IMG/VR virus record: IMGVR_UViG_3300040801_006072
Location: 180 to 64,179 of that record
From: a virus
Reading direction: 5' to 3' (one strand)
Length of the DNA stretch: 64,000 nt
The first letter of the stretch is position 1; each line of letters begins with the position of its first letter. Below the pieces are notes generated by a model. The model did not search any database, was not told where the DNA came from, and saw only the letters and a list, made by a program, of their open reading frames with translations. This document shows positions 35,055 to 50,292 of this stretch, in pieces. Made by a program: the position numbers and the translations under genes.

Positions 35055-35519
35055 TTACCATTTACGACACGACCAGTATCTGGCCTTGTGCTTCGGTCCC
35101 GGATTATCGCAGTTATGTCTAGCTCTGAAACTTTTTCTTGCTTTAGGATTAGACTTTTTAATCTTCATGTCTGGATCACCAAAGTTTACCTTAACAACAT
35201 TGCCTTTGGGATTCTTCACATAAACTTTAAATTTTTTAACATCGCCTCGCATTGGCTTGTTTAGTTTAACTTTGCGTCCTTGATACTCTGCTTCGCCCAA
35301 CGATGACTCAACCTCCTCGTCTAGCAAGTCAGATTCGAAAAATACTTCCTCGACTTCTTCTAAGGTAATTTCGTCTAGTTCGTAGCCTTCTGGGACACAG
35401 TTAGGAACCTTTTTTCCGTTCTTTGTTTTGTGTCCGACCATTTGATAGCCTTTCCAGCAAGGGTCGCCGCCTTTAATTCTTTTATTTTCACCTTCATTTA
35501 AAATATCAGAAAGTCTCAT
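35055..35519 (-). CDS. conserved phage protein with PCWKGY and FRARHNC motifs (MRLSDI N-terminus)
   Basis: DPCWKGYQMVG...VPNCVP and KSFRARHNC...ARYWSCRKW, motifs I recall from T4-like/cyanophage proteins. Confidence 0.75.
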   Translation of the reverse strand: MRLSDILNEGENKRIKGGDPCWKGYQMVGHKTKNGKKVPNCVPEGYELDEITLEEVEEVFFESDLLDEEVESSLGEAEYQGRKVKLNKPMRGDVKKFKVYVKNPKGNVVKVNFGDPDMKIKKSNPKARKSFRARHNCDNPGPKHKARYWSCRKW

Positions 35520-35799
35520 CTGGATTTTCCCCTACGCACTGATTATGCTTTTCCTGCGCTTTATATTCCAATGAAGTTCTTGCGCTATCTAGATAATCTT
35601 TTGCCAGTGTAATTTTTGATTGAACCTAGCCCTCTAGACCCTCACTTTCGGGAATATCTTTAATAAGGTCATGCAAAAACTTGCTGTCTTGCTGTATGCG
35701 ATGCAAGGCAGCTTTGGCCATATGCACTTCATGATCGTCCTTTTGGTTATAAGGATTATCAATTGCCTTCTGCGGAATCTGGATTTCGTCTAATTTCAT
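35506..35799 (-). CDS. 97-aa protein with an in-frame TAG at codon 58 (readthrough candidate); missed by the ORF track
   Basis: Manual translation: MKLDEIQIPQKAIDNPYNQKDDHEVHMAKAALHRIQQDSKFLHDLIKDIPESEGLEG*VQSKITLAKDYLDSARTSLEYKAQEKHNQCVGENPDETF. It fills the 35520-35811 gap exactly and overlaps the next start. Confidence 0.8.
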
Positions 35800-35811
35800 A
35801 CTGGTATTTAT

Positions 35812-36426
35812 CTATTGTATCTTATCTATCACCAGTCGGTTGACCCAACCTCGAATAAACCTTTCCTGTGTGCTGTCTTCTTCGGCTCTTCCTACGTAAA
35901 ATGAGCCGCGCAATATAAGCAATAGCTTGAGCACGTAAATATCGCTCTCTACGCTAAGACACTTGGTTAGTGCCATAGCAGTACGTGTTCCTGCCCAGCC
36001 GTCGACTTTGAGATCTTCGAACAGTGCTTGATCACGATTCAGCATGTTTAGCGTCCTTTGCAGGAATTCTGCTGCTCGCTTCACACCCATGTTAACAGAA
36101 CAATCGAACATTTCTGCTGCAATTTCTTTAGATTTGCTGCTCACACTGTCTAGGTTTAACTGACTGTGGTTCCAGAAGTTCTCGTAATAAAAGTGTTTAA
36201 CCCAATAATTAAGTTCTTCGTCGGCATACAAGCATTCAGGAAAATCTTCTTGCTCCTTTAGTTCGTCTACAACTTTCCAGCCAGGCCAATTAGGCCAATA
36301 AACTCTGCTCACACCCTTATATGTTTCTCCGCCATAGTCAGAAGGATCATCTACATAGCCTCCTTCGGCACTGCGAGTGAAAGCATAAGCCTCTAAAAAT
36401 ACTTCAGGTATAGCTACGTCTGTCAT
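35812..36426 (-). CDS. glycoside hydrolase family 108 lysozyme with peptidoglycan-binding C-terminus
   Basis: EGGYVDDPSDYGGETYKGVS, MFDCSVNMG, LQRTLN and FIRGWVNR. Confidence 0.92.
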   Translation of the reverse strand: MTDVAIPEVFLEAYAFTRSAEGGYVDDPSDYGGETYKGVSRVYWPNWPGWKVVDELKEQEDFPECLYADEELNYWVKHFYYENFWNHSQLNLDSVSSKSKEIAAEMFDCSVNMGVKRAAEFLQRTLNMLNRDQALFEDLKVDGWAGTRTAMALTKCLSVESDIYVLKLLLILRGSFYVGRAEEDSTQERFIRGWVNRLVIDKIQ

Positions 36427-37889
36427 GATATTTCTCCTAGCTGTCTTCCGACTAGCAGTTTAATTAGGTCTTGTGTGCTATCTGCGGATTTAGCACCTTT
36501 CTTCATGTTTTCTAATTCACCGAACAGTGATGCAAACGCCTGTAGTGTTTTCTTGTCGACTTCGTCTGTGTAGCCAAATTTTCTTTTGCTGTCGCCCACG
36601 TCAAGCTCGATGCTAAGATCAGCTTTGGTATCGTTATATTCTGACAAAAGATTTTCTAACTTGGTTTCGTATTGGTTGATTACACTGACCCAATATTGTT
36701 GTAACTCGGGGAAGTTAGTACCGTCTGCTAGATTATCTAGTATCTCTTCACGACTGTCGCCCTGCTTCCTAAGATGACGCTTGGCCTGTGTAGTACCTAG
36801 TTCAGGGTGACCAATGGCAGAAGATAAGCTGCCTAGAAGCTTACCTAAGAAACTCTCTACGGTGTTGACTGACCTAGGCTTTTCGCGAAGGTCGTTGCGC
36901 ACTTGCCATATAAAGTCTTTTGCTGTAGTAAACAGATCTTTGTCCACTACCTTGAACTGGTCGCCTGTTTTCTTGTGGCGGAATACTACGCCTTCAATCC
37001 AACCACCATCTTCGACTTCTGGGCCAAATTCGCTTTTGATTTGTCTAACCAAGCGATTAAGCAGAATTTCTTTGATGCGCAGCTTATAGCCATCTTTGCT
37101 TTCGCCGCCTATCATTTCATGCTGTATTTCTTCTCGCTTGGTTTTAAGCTGCTCTTTGACACTACGCCAGTTTTGGGGTTCTACGGAATCTGGTCTACGG
37201 TTTAAAGGTAGTGCCAAAACTTCTGCATTTGAAAACTTCCATACACCAGAAGGCTGTTTAAGATATGCTTCTAATTTATCGAGCTCTGCATGAATGCGAT
37301 CTTTTATCTCATCGTCTATCATGCTTTCACTGTCCCATGTGGGTGTCCTGCTAAAAGACCAGCGGTGTGTTTCTGGTGCAGTCTTGATTGTCTTTCCGTC
37401 AACAGTATAAGGTGCGTTTACACGAACTGTAACGATATCTCCGTCTAATGCTTTATGAAGATGGGCAATGTCTACGTCACCCTCAACTACTCGCAAAAGA
37501 ATAATCTCGTTCTCTTCGCTTGAGTAAGGTACTGCATTAGGTAGTGTACCAAACAGAACTTCAACTTCTATTCTGTCACCGCTTCTCATTCCGGCTTCTC
37601 GCATAACAGAAGCCTTTTGTTCTAGTGCAAGGTGAGCGGATCGCTGAAAGGTAGTAGAAAAATTAATGGGATAATCGTCAGCATTGTAAACTCGCTGTCC
37701 TCCCTTATCCTCACGAGTGGTGTAGAAGCCGTAGTCGTCAATGCCGAACTGTATATTGGCGCCATCTACTTTTTCAGATATCTCGTAATCTTCAAAGTTT
37801 CTCAGTGCATCTATAAACTGATCAACTGCGAGATCCTCGACGTGAGTAATGCCTTCGAATGTTGACTTACGTAGTTCGCCGAATTTCAT
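36423..37889 (-). CDS. putative ATP-grasp nucleotidyltransferase / RNA-ligase-like protein (MKFGEL N-terminus)
   Basis: Motif I-like SEKVDG, EVLFG, EGVVF and QFKVV. Confidence 0.6.
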   Translation of the reverse strand: MKFGELRKSTFEGITHVEDLAVDQFIDALRNFEDYEISEKVDGANIQFGIDDYGFYTTREDKGGQRVYNADDYPINFSTTFQRSAHLALEQKASVMREAGMRSGDRIEVEVLFGTLPNAVPYSSEENEIILLRVVEGDVDIAHLHKALDGDIVTVRVNAPYTVDGKTIKTAPETHRWSFSRTPTWDSESMIDDEIKDRIHAELDKLEAYLKQPSGVWKFSNAEVLALPLNRRPDSVEPQNWRSVKEQLKTKREEIQHEMIGGESKDGYKLRIKEILLNRLVRQIKSEFGPEVEDGGWIEGVVFRHKKTGDQFKVVDKDLFTTAKDFIWQVRNDLREKPRSVNTVESFLGKLLGSLSSAIGHPELGTTQAKRHLRKQGDSREEILDNLADGTNFPELQQYWVSVINQYETKLENLLSEYNDTKADLSIELDVGDSKRKFGYTDEVDKKTLQAFASLFGELENMKKGAKSADSTQDLIKLLVGRQLGEIS

Positions 37890-37904
37890 AGTTCGACCTA
37901 TGTG

Positions 37905-38531
37905 TTAGGATTTTCTTTTACGACCGAACATGTGTTCGTCGGTGTTTGATTCCTCTGCAGGCAAAAACTCTGCTGCAATCTGTCGGAAAACGTCTTTGAT
38001 CTGCTTATTGGTAATAGCAGTCTCATTTAGGATAGATTCGTCTAGGCCTTCTTCGCCCATGTATTTGAGAACTTGCTTTTGCAATCCTCTTTGCACAATT
38101 CCTCTAGCAAGCTTTGACACAATTTCGCTTTCGCCTTGAGAAGTAACACCGACTTGCTGGAAAGACTTTTTGATCTCTCGATCAGAGAATCCCATCTGTT
38201 GTAACAGACGAACAATCTCTTGTGTCCTTGATGGCTTACCTGAATTTTCCCAAACATCGAAAATGTCTTCGTAGCTGACTGTGCTCTTGCCTCGAACAGG
38301 ATCAACTACATTGCGTTTGATGTCTCGGCCTATTTCTCGAGCAGCACCTTTGGCACGATCGACTTGGTCTCGTGCTCGTTGCTTCAATGATTTTCCGATC
38401 TCTAGTGGTGCCTCATTAATGCCGGCAAGTTTCTTTAACCGTTCGGTCTCTTCAGTCTTGGCATTGCTATTGCGAATCTTAACAATCGTGTGAAAAATTT
38501 CTCGTATTGTCTCTGTGCTTAAATTAGACAT
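37905..38531 (-). CDS. hypothetical protein, possibly head-associated
   Basis: ERLKKLAGINE motif similar to those at 21756 and 56451. Confidence 0.6.
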   Translation of the reverse strand: MSNLSTETIREIFHTIVKIRNSNAKTEETERLKKLAGINEAPLEIGKSLKQRARDQVDRAKGAAREIGRDIKRNVVDPVRGKSTVSYEDIFDVWENSGKPSRTQEIVRLLQQMGFSDREIKKSFQQVGVTSQGESEIVSKLARGIVQRGLQKQVLKYMGEEGLDESILNETAITNKQIKDVFRQIAAEFLPAEESNTDEHMFGRKRKS

Positions 38532-38856
38532 GACGTTTGAGTTCCCTAGCAAGCTGTTCTTTTTGCTGATCTGTCAGCTTATCGTCAATTACACTTTTCA
38601 CTCTATCTAGTGCGGCGGCATCGACATCAGAAACACCGGTTGATTTATCCACTAGCAAATTTTGCAGTTTGGTTCTAACTTTATCCGGCAACACAAAATT
38701 ATACTCGTCCTTTAGAAAACCCGTCAAGAACTCGTATACATGCTGTCCTTGTGCCTGCTCTCCTGGTGTGTCCGGGGTAGCAATTCCGTTGCCCTTAGCA
38801 TACTGCAACCATGCTCCTACTAATTTCTCGACTCTAGGATCATTTTCAGGAATCAT
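38524..38856 (-). CDS. hypothetical protein
   Basis: 110-aa coupled ORF. Confidence 0.6.
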   Translation of the reverse strand: MIPENDPRVEKLVGAWLQYAKGNGIATPDTPGEQAQGQHVYEFLTGFLKDEYNFVLPDKVRTKLQNLLVDKSTGVSDVDAAALDRVKSVIDDKLTDQQKEQLARELKRHV

Positions 38857-39100
38857 CTTCTTTGTTCTCCTTGACCTTGCGAATCGATCTGCTGAAACGT
38901 CTTGGGTCTTGCCCTTTGATGCTGCTCAAGAATCTGCGCTTGAGCTGGTCTGCTTCCTCTTCTGAATAAGTCTCCTCGATCATTTCCAGTAGAAATATAG
39001 CAGACGAAATAACGTGGTGAGCTCTTGTCTCGATTAAGTCTTCTTTGTTCTTCTCGGGAACAAATGTACTGATCTCGTGTAAGATGCTTTTGCTAGACAC
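38846..39100 (-). CDS. hypothetical protein
   Basis: 84 aa; IETRAHHVISSAIFLLEMI...RRFLSSIKGQDPRRF. Confidence 0.7.
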   Translation of the reverse strand: MSSKSILHEISTFVPEKNKEDLIETRAHHVISSAIFLLEMIEETYSEEEADQLKRRFLSSIKGQDPRRFSRSIRKVKENKEDDS

Positions 39101-39138
39101 AATAATACCTTTCGGGCCGGTTTTCTGTATTTATCAGC

Positions 39139-40554
39139 TTATTCCATTCCTTTGAGAAGATTACGCAAGGCTGTTGCCTTATTTGCCGTATCTGCCGGCG
39201 TATCCTTCTCTTTATTAGGCGCTGTGGGCAGGCCGTTGCTAGGTTTCACCACGCTCTTTTGCTTGAGTGTGTCCATGATATTCTTTGTTGTAGCTTCAAC
39301 TGCGCCAGCATCGTCGTCGTCGAGATCACTTATGCGAAGTGTCTTTTGATTAAATGCTAAGTCGACCTTAGAACCTACACCTGAACTAGAACGTGTCTTC
39401 ATAAACTGTACTTGATAGCGCCCAGCTTCTTTCATCGCCATTGTTGAGAAAATTGCAATCACATTATCCGCAGTGTTCACCTTGGAAATACCTCCTGCAA
39501 TGTGACTGGCATCAAATTCTATTTCCTCAAACGATCCTCTGTTTAGCTGCGAAGCTGTAGCAAACAACACATCTAGGTCTGCTGCTAAGTTTCTAAATTC
39601 TTCCGAAACATACTTGTCCTTAATAAACTGGTCGCTTGGCGCCACTTTTACAGTGACTGGCCAACACAGGTCAAGATAGTCAACAAGGATCGCATCTGTC
39701 TTTATGCCTGTTTGCACTTCGTACTCTTTTACGTATGCTCGAATATCATTCACTGTGCTACCACTTGGCATGTACTTTAGTCGTACATTACCCTTGTGCT
39801 TTTTGTGGAAGCTCTTAACACGCATCGCAACGTCTTCGGAGTTTTTAAGTACTTCTCTAGTCTCGTATCCTGCTGTCATTGCGTCTAATCTCATGGCACA
39901 TAAGTTCTCACTAAGCTCAAGTGTTATGTAGACCACGTTTAGTCCTTCGATTGCCCAATTTATGGCTAAATTTTGCAGGAATAAGCTCTTCCCTGCTCCA
40001 GGTTGTCCCGCAAAGATTGTGATCTCTCCTCGGTTGAAACCACCATACAATTTCTTGTCTACATCGCGCCAGCCAGTGCTGAGCAGGCCGCTGTTATTCT
40101 TAATTGCCTCTAGTCGAGCTAGCGGATCTGCAAAGTAGTCTGTGCCTAGATCTTTAACCAGTCCAATCTGCACAGCTTCTTTAATCTTTGCTTCTACTTC
40201 GCCATATCTGCTTTCTTCTAGGAGATCTGGGGAACTAAGAATTGCTAGCTCTAGTGCTTTGTGTCGACAGAACTTCTCATAGGAATTCAAGAACCATTCT
40301 TTATGATTATCTGCAATTCCGGAGACTACTTCAATCTCTTTGCCAGCGACTGCCCTAATCTGCTCGATTGTCGGAAGTGCATTGTAGTCGTTTGAGTGAC
40401 TGCTCAGGAACTCAATAGTGCGCTTGTTAATTTCGCTGTTGAAATATTTTGAATCGGTAATGCCTTTGCATCTTACAAACAGTTCAGGATCACTTACCAT
40501 GAACTGTATAAAGAGATCTTCGATCTCTTTGGTATAATCTTTAATGTCTATCAT
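39139..40554 (-). CDS. replicative DnaB-like helicase (T4 gp41-like)
   Basis: Walker A AGQPGAGKS, ITLELSE, ILVDYLDL, TASQLNR and KTRSS. Confidence 0.93.
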   Translation of the reverse strand: MIDIKDYTKEIEDLFIQFMVSDPELFVRCKGITDSKYFNSEINKRTIEFLSSHSNDYNALPTIEQIRAVAGKEIEVVSGIADNHKEWFLNSYEKFCRHKALELAILSSPDLLEESRYGEVEAKIKEAVQIGLVKDLGTDYFADPLARLEAIKNNSGLLSTGWRDVDKKLYGGFNRGEITIFAGQPGAGKSLFLQNLAINWAIEGLNVVYITLELSENLCAMRLDAMTAGYETREVLKNSEDVAMRVKSFHKKHKGNVRLKYMPSGSTVNDIRAYVKEYEVQTGIKTDAILVDYLDLCWPVTVKVAPSDQFIKDKYVSEEFRNLAADLDVLFATASQLNRGSFEEIEFDASHIAGGISKVNTADNVIAIFSTMAMKEAGRYQVQFMKTRSSSGVGSKVDLAFNQKTLRISDLDDDDAGAVEATTKNIMDTLKQKSVVKPSNGLPTAPNKEKDTPADTANKATALRNLLKGME

Positions 40555-41572
40555 TCTTACTCATTTTCCATTTTAATTGTATTTTTGTCGGATTCCGTTC
40601 CGATGAGTCTATGATTGATCTTAGCGTTAATATTCTGCCATACTTTCTTGTTGCTTCTGCCGCATCTTTTATTCCATCACCCCATTCTGGAAAAGCAACT
40701 CGCCAACCCTCTTTGACTGCGATCTCAACCAGTGTGTCTCCTGCTTTGTCTCGGTCCGGACACACAATGACTTTCTTGCCTAGTGTTTTAATAATTTGTG
40801 CTTGCTCTGGATCCAAGGTATTGTGACAAGAACTTATGCCGTCGACGAAGTACGCATCAAACACACCTTCACACAGTATTACATATTCTCTTTCAAAGCC
40901 GTATTGATTGCTTAGATTATATATGTAATTTTCCGGCATACGGTTAAGATATTTGGGCACGCTCTTGTTAGGCGTTTTGCCAAAGTATCTACCAGTGTAT
41001 CCTACTATTTCACCGCGGAACCAAAACGGCAGCAACAGTCTTTTATTAAAGGTGTATTCTTTGTCTGGTGTCCAATACACATGTCGGAAATTAGTAAATC
41101 CCCTGTTCAATGCATAGTCAGCTACCTGTAGGAAATTAGGATCTGTGCATCCTTGGTCAGCCCAGTCTTGCAAGGTTCTAGAATCCTTAGGCAATGCCAT
41201 TGGTTTCCAGTTTTTAGTGATGATGCCACGAAGCTGAATGTCGTTGCTTGATTCTACTGCATTTTGTTCTTTGAACAATTCGAAGTTCAGTTTACGTATG
41301 TCGTACTGGCTAACTCCGATCTCTTTAAGGAATCGTATAAACTTCTTACTGAACGTTTGACCAGGTGACCAAACTGCATCATACCCGCAGTTGAAACAAT
41401 GGGCTGCTATTTTTCCGTCAGGAGAGAATAACACACCGAATCTGCCTCGGGTGTCTCTCGACTCACCACTCAGGTGGCACAACATACAGTTTCGTGTTAG
41501 CCAGCCTTTTCTAGATTTTTTGACTGGCCCGAGATGCTGTATGATCAGTTCTTGTAATAATTTTTGAACCAT
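40541..41572 (-). CDS. DNA primase (T4 gp61-like)
   Basis: Zn-binding CMLC...HCFNC; GYTGR; TOPRIM ILCEGVFDA and PDRDKAG. Confidence 0.9.
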   Translation of the reverse strand: MVQKLLQELIIQHLGPVKKSRKGWLTRNCMLCHLSGESRDTRGRFGVLFSPDGKIAAHCFNCGYDAVWSPGQTFSKKFIRFLKEIGVSQYDIRKLNFELFKEQNAVESSNDIQLRGIITKNWKPMALPKDSRTLQDWADQGCTDPNFLQVADYALNRGFTNFRHVYWTPDKEYTFNKRLLLPFWFRGEIVGYTGRYFGKTPNKSVPKYLNRMPENYIYNLSNQYGFEREYVILCEGVFDAYFVDGISSCHNTLDPEQAQIIKTLGKKVIVCPDRDKAGDTLVEIAVKEGWRVAFPEWGDGIKDAAEATRKYGRILTLRSIIDSSERNPTKIQLKWKMSKNDRH

Positions 41573-41580
41573 ACTGAGGT

Positions 41581-41610
41581 ATTATAGCACAGATACTCAG
41601 TATTTTACAA
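41581..41610 (-). promoter_or_regulatory. sigma70-type promoter (extended -10) upstream of primase
   Basis: TTGTAA-18 nt-TATAAT with TGn just before the -10 box. Confidence 0.6.
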
Positions 41611-41623
41611 GTCGAAAGACTCG

Positions 41624-42511
41624 TTAGCTTCTGAGTATAATCTTCTTAAGTGTGCCGGGTTCAACAACTTCCATTGAAGGTGTGTACCTGAACTTAAAGA
41701 ACATCACGTTAGCTTCAAACGAAAATGCTTGGGTCCCAAAGAATTCGATGAACTCGAGCATCTCCGATCCGGTCACTACCTGAATATTAAACCAATGGTC
41801 TGTTGTCGGATCGCTTTGTGGATTGATATCTAGTGTACCTAACAACTCTAGTGTTCCTGTGAATCTGTTGTCCTGGTCGGTATACACAGAAAAACTGTGA
41901 GTAGAGTTAGTATGGTTCTGTACTCTACCTGCAGGAATAGTGGAACTATAAAACTGACTGATGATAGGTGTATTTCCGTTTACCAGTGTTCTCTGTTCTG
42001 TCCAATCATCTTCCTCGATGATGAAACTAGGCCTAGGCACACGTTCTGCTTGGCCTGTAATTCTCACTGTGGTAACAATGTTGCTATCAGTATCAGTAAA
42101 TACCGGAGTAGTAAGTGACTCACCAATGCGCCCTGGTACAAAGTCCTTTTGTCCTACAATTACCAATTCATACAATCCTTGTGCAAGGTTTGCAATATCA
42201 CCTTCGTTCAAATCCAAAAATAGCATTCCGATTGCAGTGTTTGTTCTGCAAGGCTTTTCGAGCACTAGCTCACGATTTTCAGTATTAAACAATCTACCGT
42301 ACAATTGATAGGTGCAGATGTTTATTGGCTTACGGTCCGGATCAAACACACGGAATTTCAACGTATTATCCATGCCTTTGTGGACTTTAATTTCTCGACG
42401 GTTCATAGGCGCATTATCCGTATCGATGCAGGTGATCCTATCGTCGCACATGAGTAGACGTCGAACGTCGTCAAATAGATAGAGATCAGTCAGTGTTGTT
42501 TTCATGTACAT
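41624..42511 (-). CDS. hypothetical protein, possibly structural
   Basis: 295 aa; IKVHKGMDNTLKFRVFDPDRKP. Confidence 0.7.
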   Translation of the reverse strand: MYMKTTLTDLYLFDDVRRLLMCDDRITCIDTDNAPMNRREIKVHKGMDNTLKFRVFDPDRKPINICTYQLYGRLFNTENRELVLEKPCRTNTAIGMLFLDLNEGDIANLAQGLYELVIVGQKDFVPGRIGESLTTPVFTDTDSNIVTTVRITGQAERVPRPSFIIEEDDWTEQRTLVNGNTPIISQFYSSTIPAGRVQNHTNSTHSFSVYTDQDNRFTGTLELLGTLDINPQSDPTTDHWFNIQVVTGSEMLEFIEFFGTQAFSFEANVMFFKFRYTPSMEVVEPGTLKKIILRS

Positions 42512-42577
42512 ACAGCTATTTATCTGGATGTTACCAAGAATTCATAGGGGACGAATAGCTCCATAATAAATAGCTTT

Positions 42578-42946
42578 GTGGATATTACAGAAGTACAAGA
42601 AAAGTTCCCGTTCCTAACCGGTCTGAAATACCAAGATCGGGAATTCCTCTGCATCATACAAAATCATAGTGACAAGATCATGAGCTTCTATGATTTCAAT
42701 CAAATCTCCACATCAGCAGAAAAACAACTGTTTTTAGACTATGGCGATACATGGTGGTGGGAATCGAACAGACTTCTGCCTATCAATATCTTCCTAACAG
42801 GAAAAATGGCTCACTTCAGGTACTGCTTAAAAACAGTAGCAATGAAAGATGTAGAAATTCTGTTCGGTCCCACAACAAGTCTTAATAACCTAATGAAGAA
42901 AAGAATCAAAAAGCGTCAGATTCAACTCGTTAGGAAATCCGATTAA
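42578..42946 (+). CDS. hypothetical protein; the only convincing plus-strand gene
   Basis: EKFPFLTGL...YGDTWWWESNRLLPINIFL; fills an otherwise empty gap; ATAAATA on the plus strand just upstream. Confidence 0.75.
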   Translation: MDITEVQEKFPFLTGLKYQDREFLCIIQNHSDKIMSFYDFNQISTSAEKQLFLDYGDTWWWESNRLLPINIFLTGKMAHFRYCLKTVAMKDVEILFGPTTSLNNLMKKRIKKRQIQLVRKSD

Positions 42947-43626
42947 ATCTTCTTTCCTTTTAGCACATCCTTTAACACCAACTTATTATTTGTAGAATGA
43001 ACCAATACCGTGTTGTCCTTCTCACGGTAAGTTTTGATCTTATCTCCACGCATACCCGATCCTGCTAGATCTTTGCACATTGCTTTCTCTTCGCAGCGCC
43101 GAATTGACTCGTAATGTTCGCGAACACGCTCTTCTAACAAACGCCTAGCTTCGGTGCGATTATAGTGCTGGCACTTCTTTGCGCTTTTCGCTTCAATGCC
43201 CGTTGGCAAATGTCGCATGACGACACAGCTTTCAGTTTTGTTGCGATGTTGGCCGCCTGGGCCAGAATCTTTAGTTGTGAATGTTTCTATGTCACTATCA
43301 TGTAACTCGTAGTTCACAACATCTTGTTTCTTACGAGCAACCACAGTCACAGTAGAAGTGTGCACACGACCACGAGTTTCCGTAGGTGGGACTCTTTGCC
43401 AGCGATGGCCGCCGGATTCATTCAGTAAGGGTTGTAGGTTTTTCTCTTTACCAGAACAGCAAAGAGTAATGGAATTTCAGCCGCAGGCTGCTCGAGACTC
43501 AGCAATGGTCTCTACGTGAAGATTGTGCTTGGCACAGTAATTTTGATAAATCGATGCTTGCTTCTCTACTAATAGCTTTGCATCATCGCCGCCTTCGGCA
43601 GCTCTAATTTCAAGTAGTAATTTCAT
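42943..43626 (-). CDS. truncated RF1-type peptide chain release factor with an in-frame TGA at codon 50
   Basis: MKLLLEIRAAEGGDDAKLL...AACG*NSITLCCSG...NESGGHRWQRVPPTETRGRVHTS...SGPGGQHRNKTESCV. GGAGG RBS before the ATG at 43626; TGA at 43479-43477. Confidence 0.88.
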
Positions 43627-43643
43627 AGTTATTACCTCCGTAC

Positions 43644-43651
43644 TATTTATA
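43644..43651 (-). promoter_or_regulatory. T4-type late promoter upstream of the release factor gene
   Basis: Exact TATAAATA, 18 nt upstream of the ATG. Confidence 0.7.
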
Positions 43652-43936
43652 CTACGCGGACTCTAGGCCTAAGTCTAGCAATGCTTTCCTCGTTACATCT
43701 TCAAGTCTCATAATAGACAGAAAACATTCTACTGCATCTTCATAATCGCTAAACCAAGTTTCCATGCCGCTGTCGTCAAGGCCCCAGGCACACACCACAT
43801 ACTCTTTTGTAACTGGGCTTTGGTCTAAGGACACTTCGACATATTGGTCAAGATCAGAACACTTGATCGAAGGATACCAATCTTCGGACGTCCTCTTAAG
43901 ACAATTAAAAGTTTTCATATGCATTTGCCTGTTCAA
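43652..43936 (-). CDS. hypothetical protein
   Basis: ~90-aa ORF ending TAG. Confidence 0.6.
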   Translation of the reverse strand: MNRQMHMKTFNCLKRTSEDWYPSIKCSDLDQYVEVSLDQSPVTKEYVVCAWGLDDSGMETWFSDYEDAVECFLSIMRLEDVTRKALLDLGLESA

Positions 43937-44495
43937 GTAATAGATTCATTTGGACCACAATGCTGAGTGCATATGCAACAGAGTGGCTCTTTTTAAAATG
44001 GTACGATCCGTCGGCAGGTTTGTCCCACACGGTCTCGGAAATCACCTCCCATGGCTTATTTTGCAGGTGCGCTTTGGACGGGCGAATAATCGCAAGCAAC
44101 ATTGCTAACTGCTCGACGGATCGTGGTTTGTGAGCTTTCACCAAACGATAATAGTCGCCAATGTGAAATAGCTCTTTTACAATTTCTTCTACCTCTAGCA
44201 AAGTCCAATCTGGTTCTTTGCTTAGTAATTTGTCTAAGTGTGCTTCGTTGCGCACATCCTCGTAGATACTAACATTAAGACAATCAATTTTAAAATACCC
44301 CAACAGTTCGGCATCTTTGTAATCAATATTAGCTTGATTGGTAAATGGATCTTTCGGAATGTTCTGCAAATAGATTCCTGTTTTGTGCTTCTCCATTTCC
44401 TTGCGGCGCTGAATACTTGCGTCGGCAAAACGCAAACCCTGCAGAGCACGATCACGATCTGCAAAATCGATATCTACGTCTGCTTGAATTATCAT
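43905..44495 (-). CDS. minimal DnaE (C-family DNA polymerase) palm-like protein
   Basis: ADVDIDF (cf. DnaE PDFDVDF), KHKTGIYL, GYFKIDCL (cf. GLVKFDFL), LAIIRP and FKKSHSVAYA. Confidence 0.8.
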   Translation of the reverse strand: MIIQADVDIDFADRDRALQGLRFADASIQRRKEMEKHKTGIYLQNIPKDPFTNQANIDYKDAELLGYFKIDCLNVSIYEDVRNEAHLDKLLSKEPDWTLLEVEEIVKELFHIGDYYRLVKAHKPRSVEQLAMLLAIIRPSKAHLQNKPWEVISETVWDKPADGSYHFKKSHSVAYALSIVVQMNLLLEQANAYENF

Positions 44496-45175
44496 AGACC
44501 CGCCTCGTTAAGCACAGTTTTGATAAATTTTACATCTTCCTGATTTTTAGTGATCCTGCTTGTCCATATGCCTGGATTAATAATCGGCTCAATCATTGCG
44601 TATTGTTCCTCATTGAACCTATCCATCAGTCCATCGGCGCTAGGTGCAAGATACAAAACCCAGGGGCTAATCTTGCCTGTCTTTAAATAGTATACAGCTT
44701 CTTGTGTTGTTGCACTGCGGAAAAAGTCATTAAAATTGTTGCCCGATTCTTCTGCCCACTCTGTAAAAAATAGCATTGTTCTTTCCAACGCTCGCTCGGG
44801 TGGCTCTTTTTTCATAAGCTCGACAAGATATGTTTCGTAAACGTAATCCTTTTGCCAATCTTTCAACTTCACCGAATTCTTAATCACAAAGTCTACAAAG
44901 TTATCTGTGTTAATCGGATTCAGTTCTGCAAGGTGTCTGCCGAACTTAACAAAAGCAGTGTAGTATTGACTGTCGATAAAATCTTCAAACGACTTGGGAT
45001 TCTTCGCAGTAGTTGTTAACTCGAAGAATCGCTGAAAGACTCGGAACCCCAATCTACTGCCAATGCTGTCTCGGTCTGCATATCTCCTTTTCTTAGGGCA
45101 CATGTGAGAACTCAGGGTTTTCTCCTGAGCAAATGACTTTTTACAGAATTTACATTTGAAAGGTTTATTTGACAA
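44492..45175 (-). CDS. C2H2 Zn-finger-containing protein
   Basis: FKCKFCKKSFAQEKTLSSHMC. Confidence 0.75.
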   Translation of the reverse strand: MSNKPFKCKFCKKSFAQEKTLSSHMCPKKRRYADRDSIGSRLGFRVFQRFFELTTTAKNPKSFEDFIDSQYYTAFVKFGRHLAELNPINTDNFVDFVIKNSVKLKDWQKDYVYETYLVELMKKEPPERALERTMLFFTEWAEESGNNFNDFFRSATTQEAVYYLKTGKISPWVLYLAPSADGLMDRFNEEQYAMIEPIINPGIWTSRITKNQEDVKFIKTVLNEAGL

Positions 45176-45623
45176 TTTCTTTTATTTCTTTGTCGTCATA
45201 TCCGGCAGCAATCAAGGTGTCTACTATTTCTTCTTTGCTGGATATAGTTTCTAACAACTCAAGCTCGTCATTCTTGAGACTTGGGTAAATCTTAGACAGT
45301 GTTTCCTGGACCTTATTTTTGCCTCGTGTCTTTCCCGGCTTAATCCATTGATGAAACTGTTTAGTTCCTGTGCCGCACAGCGCCATCAGTTTCCACTGTA
45401 ATTCAGGATGCTTTGTTAGAGCACTGAAGTTGTGATTAACAAACTCATTTACCATAATGAGATAGTGGTCTGCTGTTCGGCCTTTACAAGAGCTCAGCCA
45501 GCGCATGGTAATCCATGCGACGAACTCTTTCTTTTTATCATCGTCTAGCCTATTATAAAAGTCCTTGTCGCCCTGGTCAAGTGCAGGCAGGACTTCTTTA
45601 AACATGTCTAATTTTTTTGCCAC
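45165..45623 (-). CDS. putative clamp-loader small subunit (gp62-like)
   Basis: LDMFKEVLPALD...WITMRWLS...HPELQWKL...FHQWIKP; resemblance recalled, not computed. Confidence 0.55.
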   Translation of the reverse strand: MAKKLDMFKEVLPALDQGDKDFYNRLDDDKKKEFVAWITMRWLSSCKGRTADHYLIMVNEFVNHNFSALTKHPELQWKLMALCGTGTKQFHQWIKPGKTRGKNKVQETLSKIYPSLKNDELELLETISSKEEIVDTLIAAGYDDKEIKEIVK

Positions 45624-45885
45624 GTGTTTTCTCTTTCTGGTTAGGACCAATAAGTGCAGGATTTTTTAGTGCCCAGTTGAACAAACTTGTGCTATTCAGT
45701 TTGCCTTTGAGCATGAGAACATTTAAGAGTTGCTCGTCCTCTGTGTGTACCTCAACAACTTGTCGATATGTTTCGTCTTGAGTAATTCGATAGTGCGTAA
45801 ACCCTAGCTCTTGTAAGTATCGATGCAAGGGCAGTTCTGAGGAAGCACTGCGAGTTAGTGCATATTCAAATGCAAACTTTCTCAC
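45598..45885 (-). CDS. hypothetical protein
   Basis: 95-aa ORF with GTGA overlap. Confidence 0.55.
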   Translation of the reverse strand: MRKFAFEYALTRSASSELPLHRYLQELGFTHYRITQDETYRQVVEVHTEDEQLLNVLMLKGKLNSTSLFNWALKNPALIGPNQKEKTRGKKIRHV

Positions 45886-46385
45886 GAAAATAATTCGCCT
45901 ACACTCAAGCTATCGGGTATCTTGTTTTTCTCTTTCACAAAAATTGCACAGCGAGGCTTATCACCTTCCTCTAGAGGAACCACAAGCATGGTGCCGTGTC
46001 TCAATTTCGGAAAATACCATTTTACTTCTGCATACACATTTACGATATTTACTTCGAACGGTTCGGGAACCATGTGATGAAGTGGATTGAATACTGTGGT
46101 GAAGAATCCCCTATCATTCAATTCAGTTAGAGGCATAATCTCGATATCCGAGTAATCTTCGTCACACACCACAATTGACCAGTCAAGTGGCATTTGTATT
46201 CTATTCTCACCAATCTGCAACACAATCGCAGGAGCATAAAATGACTCTAGGAAGATCAAAGGAATAAAATAGTAGTCGGTGTTGCTAGGATCTGTAGTAT
46301 CAAACACACAGTAACGAATGTCCTCTACTTCATCAGGAATCCTATTTAATTCATAACTCTTGTTTTCGTGGGTTAGTATTAGCAT
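45882..46385 (-). CDS. hypothetical protein
   Basis: DYYFIPLIFLESFYAPAIVL...MPLDWSI...KWYFPKL. Confidence 0.75.
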   Translation of the reverse strand: MLILTHENKSYELNRIPDEVEDIRYCVFDTTDPSNTDYYFIPLIFLESFYAPAIVLQIGENRIQMPLDWSIVVCDEDYSDIEIMPLTELNDRGFFTTVFNPLHHMVPEPFEVNIVNVYAEVKWYFPKLRHGTMLVVPLEEGDKPRCAIFVKEKNKIPDSLSVGELFS

Positions 46386-46386
46386 A

Positions 46387-46677
46387 TTATCTTGTCGTCG
46401 CTTCGTGTGAATAGTGTTCTAGGTGCTCTTTAAAATCCATTCCGCTCCTGAGACGAATCAGCATTTCTGCCTGATCCATTTCATCATCCCATTCGAGATA
46501 CACAGCTAAGAATCTCGACTCAAGTAGATCAGGACAAATCTCGTCGTAATGGCCTATAGCAAAAGCTTTATTCGGAAATATAATTTCCAGAATGTCTTGA
46601 ATTAGGCGGAAATCTAAAACACTTATTTTTGTTAAAATTTCTCGTGGATTGTCGAGTTCGTGTTTTTCAACCAGCAT
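46387..46677 (-). CDS. hypothetical protein
   Basis: 96-aa coupled ORF. Confidence 0.6.
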   Translation of the reverse strand: MLVEKHELDNPREILTKISVLDFRLIQDILEIIFPNKAFAIGHYDEICPDLLESRFLAVYLEWDDEMDQAEMLIRLRSGMDFKEHLEHYSHEATTR

Positions 46678-48110
46678 CAGTAATTTAGCTTATGTACCTT
46701 GTGAGGATACCCTGCTTCCTTGTAGTGTTTCTTTCTTTTTGTTAGGTGTCGTTTTGCATACTTACAACTAGACGTGATGTCGTATACGTTTACGAAGTCT
46801 TTGTCTTCTGCTACACGAAGTCCTCGACCAATCGACTGTATCACTCTCACAAAACTTTTCCCGGGCTCAATCAACACGAGATTAAAAATACGGTTGATGT
46901 TAATTCCAGTAGATGCAACACCGTATGTAGCAATGATCAACTTATTATCTTCGAACTGTACAGATTTGTATTCTTCCTTCCTATCAGTGGATTTTACTTT
47001 ACCACTAATAAATACCCCGCCCAAATGCTCTTCGAGCATTTCACCGGTTTGCACACGATCAACAAGAACCAATGTGTTTCCTTGTTGTGCTAGTCCAGAG
47101 ATCTTATCTGCAATAAATTCAATTCTGTCGCTACAGGTAGTGAGCCATTTTAGCTCTGCTTGATAGTTATTAAAGCCGCCAGGATCCTGTAGCTGCCAAA
47201 TATCAATATGGCAATTAGCAAGGTATCCTTTTTCTTGCAGATCTGAGGCTTTAATTTCGCCTGCTGTAGGACCAATACATGCCAACACACCTACCTTTTC
47301 GTATTCTTCTTCGGGCAGTGTTCCAGTTAGTCCCCAACGGATCGGACAATGCGCAAACTCTTGGCTTAGTAGTCGCTTCAGTACATCTGCTTTTGCTTTG
47401 TGAACTTCGTCTACTATCACTGCTGCCACACCGTCTGTCATTGCGTCGATAGAGCCATCTCTTTTCTTTTTCAGTACTTCTAGGCTTTGCCATGTGCAAA
47501 TGGTATGAGTGTGCCCTACTTCTTTTCTATCTCCGTAATACACACCTACATCAAGCCCAAAGTTAATGTAATCTTCTTCTGTTTGTGTAACTAGATCCTT
47601 AGTAGGAACAATAACCACACTGCGACCGTATTGCTCGACTTTGTGCGACAGGATAGCAGTAATAATTGTCTTGCCGCCAGCAGTGGGGCAAATGTTAACT
47701 GACTGTGTTTCCTGTAAAGAACTGTTAATGACGCCGACTTGATAGTCTCTTAGCACAACAGGCTGGCCAGCTAGCGGGTGTCCTTCGGGCCACTTAACAT
47801 GACTGTAACTGTTTTCGTCTACTTCTTGAAACTCGAAGCTGTAGTGTGTCCTTCGGTCATCAAGTTCAATGTCATAACCAGCAGAATATACGATCGGCAA
47901 TATGCGATCTAAAAGATTGATATAGGTTCGACCACCAGTGTCACAGAATGTAATATTTCCATTCCATCGGCCTAATTTATAGGCCGGAGTATGCCTAGCA
48001 TACGGAAGGAAGTAAGTAAGTTCTTTTACGATTTTTCTGCGAGTTTCTACATCTAAATTGCTTAGACGGCAGTTGACTTCATCCTTGATTTCTAGAATAC
48101 ACTGCTTCAT
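46677..48110 (-). CDS. uvsW: SF2 DNA helicase (UvsW-like)
   Basis: LRDYQ, PTAGGKT, VIVDEVH, GLTGT and QSIGRGLR; start moved to ATG at 48110, downstream of the promoter. Confidence 0.92.
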   Translation of the reverse strand: MKQCILEIKDEVNCRLSNLDVETRRKIVKELTYFLPYARHTPAYKLGRWNGNITFCDTGGRTYINLLDRILPIVYSAGYDIELDDRRTHYSFEFQEVDENSYSHVKWPEGHPLAGQPVVLRDYQVGVINSSLQETQSVNICPTAGGKTIITAILSHKVEQYGRSVVIVPTKDLVTQTEEDYINFGLDVGVYYGDRKEVGHTHTICTWQSLEVLKKKRDGSIDAMTDGVAAVIVDEVHKAKADVLKRLLSQEFAHCPIRWGLTGTLPEEEYEKVGVLACIGPTAGEIKASDLQEKGYLANCHIDIWQLQDPGGFNNYQAELKWLTTCSDRIEFIADKISGLAQQGNTLVLVDRVQTGEMLEEHLGGVFISGKVKSTDRKEEYKSVQFEDNKLIIATYGVASTGININRIFNLVLIEPGKSFVRVIQSIGRGLRVAEDKDFVNVYDITSSCKYAKRHLTKRKKHYKEAGYPHKVHKLNY

Positions 48111-48126
48111 AAAATCCTTTTTGCTT

Positions 48127-48155
48127 ATTATAATGCCAGCGTTCCATGCTGTCAA
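48127..48155 (-). promoter_or_regulatory. perfect sigma70 consensus promoter for uvsW
   Basis: TTGACA-17 nt-TATAAT. Confidence 0.85.
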
Positions 48156-48157
48156 GA

Positions 48158-48183
48158 GAAACGTGGCCCGAAAGCCACGTTTC
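48158..48183 (-). terminator. hairpin, likely terminator, after the accessory island
   Basis: GAAACGTGGC / GCCACGTTTC 10-bp stem with a TTTCGG loop; weak T-tail. Confidence 0.6.
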
Positions 48184-48192
48184 ATTCTTTTG

Positions 48193-48576
48193 TTACTTGT
48201 CTTCGAACTCCTCCTTTAACTTCAGGTATTGTTCTCGACGTCTTTCTTCGGCTGCTTTTTCTTCCTTGAGCTTTCGGGCCTTTTCGCGATGTTCTTTCTT
48301 GCGCTGTTCCTCGGCCTGCCTGGTCTTTTCTTTTTCCATCCACTCTTCATCCCAAAGATAGCTAGCAGGGATTGTGTGGTGGTCGGATTCGTAATAACCG
48401 CAGCAACTCTGGGAAGTATGGATCGTCATAGAATACGAATCGAAATCAATGTGTTCGATGTATTCTCGATCACGGCCGTTTGCCTTAAGCCAAAGATTAC
48501 CGATATCTTCTGCTCTCTCATAAATCTCTTCATGTGCACGAGCAAAAACTGCGTATCTGCGTTCGGTGATAGCCAT
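48193..48576 (-). CDS. hypothetical protein with charged C-terminal coil
   Basis: 127-aa ORF. Confidence 0.65.
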   Translation of the reverse strand: MAITERRYAVFARAHEEIYERAEDIGNLWLKANGRDREYIEHIDFDSYSMTIHTSQSCCGYYESDHHTIPASYLWDEEWMEKEKTRQAEEQRKKEHREKARKLKEEKAAEERRREQYLKLKEEFEDK

Positions 48577-49025
48577 TATGCAACCTCCTCCATCTTTGCA
48601 ACAGTGTTAGGATCGATTAATTTCCAACCCTTAATGATCTCAGCTACAGACTTGAGAGCATCTTCGTCGATGGTTCCGCCAAAAGGACCGAGCAGTTCAG
48701 CTCTTCGTTTCTTGGCGTATGGAGTATCACCTTCGATGCCTATACAGATTTTCCATTTGGCCTGCTCGAAAGCATAGTACGGCGGCTGGCCATGGACTTT
48801 GTAGTTAGGAACAAACAGCTTGTGAATGTCCTTCCCACGAAGTAGGGCATATAGCAGATGGTGTTCGCACTTCAGACTGCTGGCAAAGTATGGGGTTCCA
48901 CCCCAGTACTTCATTTCCTGTTTTTTTGCCTGACCCGAATTGATGTAGTCTTTCCAGGCCTGTCTGAATTGCAGGTAGTGGTCTTTTGTTTCAAAAAAGT
49001 TGTATTGTGCGTTTTCGATTTTCAT
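48576..49025 (-). CDS. hypothetical protein
   Basis: 149 aa; GGAG RBS. Confidence 0.7.
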   Translation of the reverse strand: MKIENAQYNFFETKDHYLQFRQAWKDYINSGQAKKQEMKYWGGTPYFASSLKCEHHLLYALLRGKDIHKLFVPNYKVHGQPPYYAFEQAKWKICIGIEGDTPYAKKRRAELLGPFGGTIDEDALKSVAEIIKGWKLIDPNTVAKMEEVA

Positions 49026-49096
49026 GGTTTGTTTCTCCGTAAATTAAGGTTTGTAGTTTGCACAGATATACAAACCCTTACGGGGAACCACGAATA

Positions 49097-49258
49097 CTAG
49101 GAATCTAGGTCCAGATCATCTTCCTTTTCCTCCTCTTCTGGTTGTGATGAGTAAAAAGGTGTGTTCCTTTCTTCCCATCGTTTAGCAGCGGTAAGCTGCA
49201 CTGTTAAATCCTTCTTGGCTGCTTCAAGCGCAAGTTGGAATGCTGTCTTCTTCGTCAT
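49097..49258 (-). CDS. small acidic-tailed hypothetical protein
   Basis: MTKKTAFQLALEAAKKDL...EEEEKEDDLDLDS; overlaps the upstream ORF. Confidence 0.4.
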   Translation of the reverse strand: MTKKTAFQLALEAAKKDLTVQLTAAKRWEERNTPFYSSQPEEEEKEDDLDLDS

Positions 49259-49490
49259 CGAACGGACTCGGCTGAGGATATCTCTCAAGCCAGTTGTAGA
49301 ACAGGTCCCAAATCGGGTCCTCTTCTTCCGGATAGTAAGGCTTCTGTGCCCAACGATCCCACGAAAACATCGGTCCACAGTACGGATGGAACTCCATCCA
49401 CACATAACGATTGCCGACATGGAAACGAAATCTAGGGTGATTTGTTCCGCAAAGTATCAGCGATCCGTCTTTGGACGATACGCAACTCAT
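49224..49490 (-). CDS. hypothetical aromatic-rich protein
   Basis: 88 aa; TAATG coupling; WMEFHPYCGPMF. Confidence 0.6.
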   Translation of the reverse strand: MSCVSSKDGSLILCGTNHPRFRFHVGNRYVWMEFHPYCGPMFSWDRWAQKPYYPEEEDPIWDLFYNWLERYPQPSPFDDEEDSIPTCA

Positions 49491-49681
49491 TAACCTACAC
49501 CCTGAATTTCAGTGATCACATCGTTCTCAATGATCACGTTAACCCTGTCTAGTCGATAATCACAGGTACCCATCATCCACTCGCCGTCGACTTTGGCCTT
49601 ACGTAGTACCATGTCTGCGAGACTGAGGAGTGCCTCAGCTTCGGGTATTGTCTTACCAATCAGTTGGTCAAAGTTTTGCAT
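49490..49681 (-). CDS. potato-inhibitor-I / peptidase inhibitor I78-like small protein
   Basis: 63 aa: LIGKTIPEA...MGTCDYRLDRVNVIIENDVITEIQGVG; GGAG RBS. Confidence 0.6.
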   Translation of the reverse strand: MQNFDQLIGKTIPEAEALLSLADMVLRKAKVDGEWMMGTCDYRLDRVNVIIENDVITEIQGVG

Positions 49682-49703
49682 AATCTTCTCCCATTGCAGA
49701 CTG

Positions 49704-49732
49704 ACAGTAGCAATATTTAGCTTCGATGTCAA
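49704..49732 (-). promoter_or_regulatory. sigma70-type promoter downstream of the tRNA
   Basis: TTGACA-17 nt-TACTGT. Confidence 0.6.
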
Positions 49733-49740
49733 CCTATGTT

Positions 49741-49816
49741 TGGTGCTCCGGGTGGGACTCGAACCCACGACCGGCGGTTTTAGAGGCCGCTGCTCTGCCA
49801 ACTGAGCTACCGGAAC
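49741..49816 (-). tRNA. amber suppressor tRNA (anticodon CUA), Trp-like anticodon arm
   Basis: GTTCCGG TA GCTC AGTTGGCA GAGC A GCGGC CT CTA AA ACCGC CGGTC GTGGG TTCGAGT CCCAC CCGGAGC A CCA; 76 nt, encoded CCA, C31-A39 mismatch. Confidence 0.93.
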
Positions 49817-49826
49817 GTATGTAGCT

Positions 49827-49855
49827 ATAGTAGCAATATTGCTCTTCGTTGTCAA
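49827..49855 (-). promoter_or_regulatory. sigma70-type promoter for the suppressor tRNA
   Basis: TTGACA-17 nt-TACTAT, ending 11 nt before the tRNA 5' end. Confidence 0.8.
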
Positions 49856-50292
49856 GAAAGGATATATTCTTTTGCAAGCTCTGCACGAATCTTCATCAAA
49901 AGCTTGCCCAAGTGGTTTTCTCCTTCGCCGTCGCAAACACCCCAGAACTTATCGCCCCAGGTATTTCCTTCGACTAGCTCGCAATCCCCTGTAAGCAGTA
50001 GCATCTCTCTCATGCTCGGAACAGAAAACTTAGCACGTAGAATATTTTCCATCACTTCAAGTTTCACTGTTTCCCAATCTTCTCGCAAAGGCACCATTCT
50101 GCCGGCTCGCTTGGCTTGGCCCGGTGTACGGCAATTACGAATAAAGTCTTTCCACACAGGATCGTTTGTCTTAGCACACATATATGCATGTTCGGAACTA
50201 GGATACTCATATCCATCATAGATTACTTTACAGTAATAGAAGTTAGACAGAAAATGAAATTCGTCTGAGAAATTATTAATCGATTCTTGCAT
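49852..50292 (-). CDS. NADAR (YbiA-like) family protein
   Basis: FLSNFY, SSEHAYMCAK, AKRAGR, WETVK...AKF, LVEGNTWGDKFWG and GENHLGKLLMKIR. Confidence 0.92.
   Translation of the reverse strand: MQESINNFSDEFHFLSNFYYCKVIYDGYEYPSSEHAYMCAKTNDPVWKDFIRNCRTPGQAKRAGRMVPLREDWETVKLEVMENILRAKFSVPSMREMLLLTGDCELVEGNTWGDKFWGVCDGEGENHLGKLLMKIRAELAKEYILS

Follow-up and report, generated by a model that had tools for sequence, protein, structure and literature searches.

The viral record IMGVR_UViG_3300040801_006072 in IMG/VR was analysed over a window of 64,000 nucleotides (positions 180 to 64,179 of the record), in which three features bear on the reading of stop codons: a tRNA with the anticodon CUA, a small gene interrupted by an in-frame TAG, and a gene for a short RF1-type release factor (RF) interrupted by an in-frame TGA (Table 1). 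A first-pass annotation, made from the sequence alone, had joined the three into a single circuit for stop-codon recoding. All three elements are confirmed at their positions, and the gene with the internal TAG reads as a single open reading frame (ORF) but for that codon.

Table 1. Features of the window that bear on stop-codon reading, with their immediate neighbours
Feature	Coordinates	Strand	Basis
Small gene, 97 codons and stop, in-frame TAG at codon 58 (35628-35626)	35506..35799	-	Translation, HMMER
Endolysin, GH108 and PG_binding_3 domains	35812..36426	-	Pfam
RF1-type release factor without domain 1, 227 codons	42943..43626	-	Pfam, comparison with RF1 in the PDB
Shine-Dalgarno sequence GGAGGT, 7 nt before the release-factor start codon	43634..43639	-	Sequence read
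94-aa ORF, no Pfam match, ending in TAG-N6-TAG	43652..43936	-	ORF list
Second promoter-like 29-mer, TTGACA-17-TACTGT	49704..49732	-	Pattern search and sequence read
tRNA with anticodon CUA	49741..49816	-	ARAGORN; Rfam RF00005, 63 bits (cut-off 29)
Sigma70-like promoter ahead of the tRNA, TTGACA-17-TACTAT, extended -10 (TG upstream of the hexamer)	49827..49855	-	Consensus scan, 10/12

The small gene runs from an ATG at 35799 to a TGA at 35508-35506, with 57 codons ahead of the TAG and 39 after it, and the 39-codon extension fills a gap of 106 nt up to the next gene. It encodes a conserved, widespread and unnamed two-helix domain of about 65 residues ('DHEV...EGLEGW-VQSKIT'), which matches the contig once when used as a profile (35554-35745, E 2.5e-25). 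A HMMER scan returned 905 relatives, the alignments spanning approximately residues 19-85 and so running across the TAG, and a word-based search returned the small gene itself as the sole match. The column of the TAG is occupied by tryptophan in 149 of 149 aligned proteins, and the codon is TGG in all 80 viral loci of the domain, which were gathered by patterns leaving out the residue at that column; the guess of the first-pass annotation that the TAG stands on a conserved Trp codon was therefore correct. The 39 codons past the TAG keep nearly all of the conserved residues of the family, the exception being V73, which is replaced by alanine, and the codon-usage score of this extension is reached by just 0.5% of out-of-frame windows. 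In an AlphaFold (AF2) model the domain forms two helices, residues 16-46 and 57-89, with pLDDT values above 90 over the core; the TAG falls at the start of the second helix, and the truncated product corresponds to half a domain, helix 1.

The extension is the only one on the contig in which reading past a TAG fills the gap to the next gene, and gap-filling TAG extensions showed no difference in loci bearing a CUA tRNA (3/37 versus 31/412). Neither Pfam nor PHROGs contains the two-helix domain or hints at its function, and a search by fold returned a single match, to an uncharacterised cyanophage protein. As a family ('DHEVxMA...EGLEGWVQSKIT.A.DYL', 905 representative relatives) the domain stands at the N terminus or in the interior of proteins of 83 to more than 1100 residues.

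The gene upstream encodes an endolysin, the terminator of which is a TAG followed by A. The small gene starts 12 nt downstream and in the same frame, so that the segment 35812-35506 of the window holds, in one frame, the end of the endolysin ORF, its TAG-A, four codons, the small gene and the internal TAG. Readthrough of the endolysin terminator would add 61 codons up to the next TAG, and readthrough at both amber codons would yield an endolysin fusion of 306 residues. The shared frame could be due to chance, the odds being one in three. One relative of the small protein begins MKLNEF..., which resembles its own MKLDEI... and therefore indicates that the small gene has its own start. A lysozyme fused to the two-helix domain was sought among 20 multidomain relatives, and none was found. 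A 488-aa protein (36423-37889) adjoins the endolysin on its other side, has a faint match to RNA ligases (E 0.005) and has a counterpart, 61% at the amino acid level, in the closest relative of this phage, L167.

The tRNA folds into a canonical cloverleaf with a 7-nt anticodon loop, CUCUAAA, an encoded CCA end, a G1-C72 pair, A73 as discriminator and a C31.A39 mismatch that closes the anticodon stem. It is the sole tRNA on the contig, and its own sigma70-type promoter, which had been proposed from inspection, is borne out by the consensus scan. Its best DNA matches are phage tRNAs for lysine with the anticodon CUU (88%, acceptor stem and T arm included), followed by the tRNA(CUA) genes of two jumbo phages, Phosso (87%) and XacN1; the loop and flank CUCUAAAAC are common to all of the phage CUA tRNAs compared. 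Unlike the tRNA(CUA), the tRNA-Trp genes of related loci have A1-U72-type ends and G73 in 19 of 19 cases. Set beside the 864 tRNAs found in related loci, it matched no isotype clearly. An origin from tRNA-Trp is not supported, given an acceptor stem and a discriminator unlike those of bacterial tRNA-Trp and best matches to tRNA-Lys. The tRNA looks Lys-derived and looks like an accessory of a variable island. Because its body is Lys-like and carries A73, the residue inserted at UAG is probably lysine, with tyrosine, glutamine and tryptophan as alternatives.

The island lies in a syntenic block with the order SSB (single-stranded DNA-binding protein), UvsX, three small genes, variable island and helicase. 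At the same position of this block, L277, a relative with a helicase 66% identical, carries a Lys-like tRNA with the anticodon UUA (L277:4186-4260) in the interval from a 154-aa gene to the helicase; the L277 locus has no other tRNA, and the other relatives have no tRNA at this variable hot spot. The second promoter-like 29-mer lies just downstream of the tRNA, ahead of a 63-aa gene (49681-49490), and the pattern TTGACA-N17-TACT[AG]T has just two exact matches in the window, the two that flank the tRNA. The near-identical 29-mers (within 49704-49855) look like the result of a tRNA insertion with a duplicated promoter. The accessory island also contains, immediately upstream of the tRNA, a gene for a NADAR-domain protein (49852-50292, E 4e-27), which is missing at the corresponding spot in relatives L277-L309.

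The release-factor gene has its in-frame TGA at codon 50 (43479-43477), in the context GGC TGA AAT. Its product matches the Pfam families PCRF (PF03462, E 5e-23, at profile positions 102-194 and hence in the C-terminal half only) and RF-1 (PF00472, E 6e-18). Against solved structures it scores far better with RF1 (E 1e-35) than with RF2 (E 7e-20), and it aligns with RF1 from about residue 112 to 336. The catalytic GGQ is present within GPGGQ, and the codon-reading region, HRWQRVPPTE..GRVHTS, contains PPT as its PxT motif; this region reads HRWQRVPPTETRGRVHTS, and its neighbouring residues are of the RF1 type (Q before, E after, and HTS). The PPT motif, the score with RF1 and the in-frame TGA together uphold the original description of an RF1-type factor that needs UGA readthrough. 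The N-terminal domain 1, which makes the contact to RF3 and the L11 stalk, is absent; the relatives begin at the same point, and the ORF upstream of the gene lies in another frame and matches no RF. In full-length metagenomic homologues (50–59% identical) the column of the TGA is Trp, which rules out selenocysteine as the residue encoded there. The Shine-Dalgarno sequence falls in the top class, with 7 of 79 genes, in a crude survey of such sequences. As it is among the strongest on the contig, low output of the factor would be set by the stop codon and not by weak initiation.

The interruption of this gene turned out to be a trait of its family. In IMG/VR, 433 contigs carry relatives of the RF, and the best 80 loci were analysed, 76 of them complete and 4 partial. 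In-frame stops are found in 53 of the 80, a prfB-like +1 frameshift site in 13, and an intact gene in 10, the remaining 4 being the partial matches, so that a gate, either a stop or a frameshift site, is present in about 87% of the 76 complete viral relatives. The in-frame stops number 56 TGA, 2 TAG and no TAA. The codon before them is GGN in 45 of 58 cases, and the base that follows (+4) is A in 40, C in 14, G in 4 and never U; the TGA terminators of this phage are mostly followed by T. The gate events fall on two Trp columns, the "GW" column of RF1 and a second one about 15 residues later, the later column being that of this phage and of the eight relatives nearest to it, and the other conserved Trp, that of HRW, is encoded by TGG in 31 of 31 sequences. 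The frameshift sites consist of an SD-like GGAGG followed by CTT TGA, or by CTT TAG at one locus. In this phage the RF thus shows a conserved stop on a Trp column and a weak termination context, as expected of programmed readthrough; a frameshift cassette of the prfB type is absent, both parts of the gene lying in one frame.

None of the 864 tRNAs of the RF loci has the anticodon UCA, and coding density in these loci shows no consistent gain under code 4; nothing in these loci points to general TGA recoding. In some relatives stable hairpins lie 12-15 nt downstream of the UGA (z -3.8 at L006:10124-10196, -4.2 at L020:10103-10175 and -2.5 at L042:10103-10175), with no consensus in the family. 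In a search for cultured phages with this RF, the INPHARED matches were host-like or came from uncultured huge phages. To our knowledge, stop-codon gating of a release-factor gene is textbook matter for RF2 alone. In a survey published in 2025, which covered more than 12,000 bacterial genomes, programmed frameshifting is described as known for prfB, and none was found in prfA (PMC12421855). Our search of the literature turned up no account of a phage RF1 gated by a stop codon, and the stop-gated short RF1 family is apparently undescribed.

The RF gene lies among replication genes, namely those for a primase, a DnaB-like helicase and a second helicase. It had been called a late gene behind the late promoter TATAAATA. 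This motif occurs 3 times in the window against 2.9 times expected by chance, the other two copies lying inside genes, and neither the promoter nor the late timing could be upheld. The 94-aa ORF upstream belongs to the same accessory insertion as the RF and is missing at the syntenic position in L167. Pfam gave no match for ten neighbouring accessory genes. The 431 nt just downstream of the RF (42512-42942) hold no minus-strand ORF; an ORF of 122 aa on the opposite strand (42578-42946), also predicted by JGI and lacking a Pfam match, is odd in a contig that otherwise runs in one direction, and it too lies in an insertion that L167 lacks.

Both stops are genuine features of this phage. JGI assemblies of two other samples are 99.9% identical, with one or two single-nucleotide differences elsewhere, and contain both stops, and Logan contigs from four microbial-mat runs have variant letters at neither. 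The possibility of sequencing errors, which had been raised at the outset, was thus checked and is ruled out by the independent assemblies and runs.

The window is part of a single contig of 69,037 bp, nearly all genes of which lie densely packed on the minus strand. Its gene content is T4-like and includes a gp32-type SSB, a UvsX-like recombinase, the DnaB-like helicase and primase, two ribonucleotide reductase subunits and a tail tube protein; the large terminase has its best match in the Pseudomonas jumbo phage PA5oct (66% at the amino acid level). The DNA of the phage was found in microbial-mat metagenomes, and IMG/VR classes the record as a provirus. CheckV puts its completeness at 19%, and contigs of 180-385 kb carry relatives of its core genes, those with relatives of its helicases reaching 385 kb; for these reasons the contig is probably a fragment of a much larger T4-like or jumbo phage genome, and the statement that the tRNA is the only one holds for the 69,037-bp contig alone. 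Under table 11, about 53 genes of the contig end in TAA, about 17 in TGA and about 12 in TAG. The phage uses the standard genetic code, since TAG and TGA serve as ordinary terminators and the ORFs are tightly packed; it follows neither code 15 nor code 4, and the manual count of 11 ordinary genes ending in TAG, made in the first-pass annotation, is reproduced here.

The relation of the three parts to one another was considered next to their distribution in relatives. They lie in three accessory islands, 6-8 kb apart, with conserved core genes between them. The closest relative, L167, which is syntenic and has a DnaB 80% identical, has neither the RF nor the TAG gene at the corresponding sites, and its contig ends before the tRNA locus. 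A CUA tRNA occurs within 10 kb in 6 of the 80 RF loci, representing four lineages, and a UCA or UUA tRNA in none. The two loci with a TAG-gated RF, L005 and L018, have no CUA anticodon among the tRNAs that were read (20 of 22 and 34 of 47, respectively), and Phosso and XacN1 carry similar CUA tRNAs and no such RF. The evidence is thus mostly against the notion that the devices evolved or are inherited as one system. The interpretation that the first-pass annotation had offered is accordingly retained in part: the elements, the standard code, the Trp codon under the TAG and the RF1 type of the factor stand, and the single circuit, the co-inheritance of its parts, the late promoter and the identity of the tRNA do not.

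We favour, with moderate confidence, a standard-code phage that carries two separable recoding devices, one composed of the suppressor tRNA and the TAG gene and the other of the UGA-gated RF1-like factor. In the first, a host-type promoter of its own would drive the tRNA(CUA), whose accessory island lies between core genes, and the tRNA would read UAG to give the full product of 97 residues from the small accessory gene; without readthrough, helix 1 of the two-helix domain alone would be made. Judged from these sequence features, the suppressor probably rescues this one TAG-interrupted accessory gene. In the second, a full-length short RF1 comprising domains 2-4, with PPT and GGQ, would arise only upon readthrough of UGA at the conserved Trp codon, the most likely reader of the UGA being the host tRNA-Trp(CCA), which would insert Trp. 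Given a strong Shine-Dalgarno sequence and a weak termination context (UGA-A), the yield of the factor would be low and would rise when RF2-dependent termination at UGA is inefficient. The gate is inherited together with the gene family, relatives relying on UGA readthrough at either of the two Trp columns or on an SD-CUU-UGA +1 frameshift. We infer that readthrough takes place at both stops, that the resulting RF is active and that its gate responds to RF2.

Several points weigh against this reading. The RF2 sensing is argued by analogy with prfB. No consensus RNA structure follows the UGA in 35 site-1 relatives, and the local hairpin after the UGA of this RF is not significant (z -1.1). A search of sequence runs found no RNA runs containing the phage. 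The contig is probably about one fifth of the genome, and further tRNAs and in-frame stops may lie elsewhere. The TAG is found in this phage alone among the 80 viral relatives of the two-helix domain, diverged relatives keeping TGG and not the stop, so that conservation cannot establish programming. The main difficulty for the TAG as a used codon is the residue: a Lys-type suppressor would place lysine where Trp is invariant and might thereby cripple the domain, so that the TAG could be a lesion. Unlikely, although the most probable of the alternatives, is a reading in which a dispensable accessory gene has simply suffered a TGG-to-TAG nonsense lesion, tolerated or buffered by the suppressor, with the tRNA as a hitch-hiker or present for another purpose. 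Such a change takes one transition, the closest relative does without the TAG gene, and L277 has a tRNA(UUA) at the same hot spot; published phage announcements also report suppressor tRNAs for which no target is identified (PMC9022506). A lesion accords poorly with 39 post-TAG codons that retain, V73 excepted, nearly all of the invariant or near-invariant residues together with coding-type codon usage, with a stop that is fixed in every assembly examined, and with the fact that the sole gap-filling TAG extension lies on a contig whose only tRNA reads TAG.

The two-device reading must also be set against the original proposal of one timed termination circuit, in which an early suppressor permits partial readthrough of UAG, after which a late RF1-like protein, gated by UGA, competes at this codon or retunes its reading. 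The stop-codon specificity of RF1 is established; a CUA tRNA and a factor of the RF1 type must be rivals for UAG in the ribosomal A site, and in this phage the RF and the suppressor would act there in opposite directions. The presence of three verified parts on one contig, the joint absence of the RF and the TAG gene from the closest relative, and the CUA tRNAs, with no UCA or UUA counterpart, near a few RF loci all speak for a circuit. We nevertheless consider it improbable, as the UGA gate is a family trait that mostly occurs without a CUA tRNA within 10 kb, similar CUA tRNAs exist without the RF, the parts are dispersed over three islands, and the supposed late promoter is at chance level in front of a gene that sits among replication genes. 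Still more doubtful is a variant in which UAG readthrough is tuned jointly by the suppressor and the RF1-like factor and so governs the output of a product linked to lysis, the endolysin/two-helix fusion, with the UGA gate tying the balance to host termination through RF2 activity. A changed code, with TAG or TGA read as Trp throughout in the manner of code 15 or code 4, would account for the fact that each in-frame stop stands in for a Trp codon, and there are known recoded gut phages that encode both a suppressor tRNA and a release factor (Borges et al. preprint, 10.1101/2021.08.26.457843). In the window, however, TAG terminates 11 genes and TGA about 17, next to neighbours that abut or overlap, and the 69 kb contain one in-frame TAG, one in-frame TGA and neither a UCA tRNA nor a tryptophanyl-tRNA synthetase. 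Genome-wide recoding is thus ruled out by terminator usage and ORF packing, and we assign a changed code a negligible probability.

The contig offers a rare and clean test case for the role of suppressor tRNAs in standard-code phages: it has a single tRNA and a single in-frame TAG, on a codon for an invariant Trp. For the RF family, the use of readthrough at two different Trp columns, or of a prfB-like frameshift in relatives, argues for selection on the gate itself, and a gated RF1 suggests that phages sense or balance the termination capacity of the host.

In terms of known systems, nonsense suppressors derived from tRNA-Lys are classical, as exemplified by the E. coli lysT ochre suppressors and engineered tRNA-Lys(CUA). 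The phage tRNA shares with these a class-I tRNA structure, a Lys-like body, A73 and U35, and it likewise differs from its presumed parent by a one-base change of the anticodon, CUU to CUA. Unlike the classical suppressors, it is phage-encoded, has its own promoter and carries the C31.A39 mismatch, and its charging with lysine is putative.

The combination of a phage suppressor tRNA and a class-I release factor in one genome is reminiscent of the code-change modules of recoded phages, which comprise suppressor tRNAs, release factors and aminoacyl-tRNA synthetases (Borges et al., 10.1101/2021.08.26.457843), and an in-frame stop adjoins a lysis gene both there and here. In those phages, however, many late genes are recoded, and a TAG suppressor is paired with RF2 or a TGA suppressor with RF1, whereas this phage has ordinary TAG and TGA terminators, a single in-frame TAG, and a TAG suppressor together with an RF1-type factor.

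Like the rescue factors PrfH and ArfB, the phage RF lacks domain 1 and keeps the GGQ domain. Unlike them, it retains the residues with which RF1 reads codons (Q, PxT and HTS-type), and its match to PrfH is weak (E 2.5e-8) compared with that to RF1. The retained residues and the far higher similarity to RF1 than to PrfH point to stop-codon-dependent release and not to rescue as the function of the factor.

In phage Qbeta, a leaky UGA at the end of the coat gene is decoded at low frequency by a near-cognate tRNA-Trp to give A1, a longer functional protein. The same principle of a leaky UGA and tRNA-Trp would apply to the RF family, and the +4 base of its stops, typically A or C and never U, fits it. 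Unlike in A1, the stop here replaces a conserved internal Trp; there is no division into core and extension, and the truncated product is presumably useless. The closest parallel in the nature of the interrupted gene is that of prfB, which encodes RF2 and is likewise interrupted early by a UGA, within the +1 frameshift site SD-N3-CUU-UGA-C, so that its yield depends on the reading of that UGA; sites of this type, with an SD-like GGAGG and CTT TGA, are those found in the 13 viral RF loci described above. Unlike RF2, an RF1-type (PPT) factor cannot read its own UGA, and the loop would therefore be one of cross-regulation by RF2 and not of autoregulation. The gate of the phage gene further differs from that of prfB in kind and position, being an in-frame readthrough at a Trp codon in domain 2, whereas the gate of prfB is a frameshift in domain 1.

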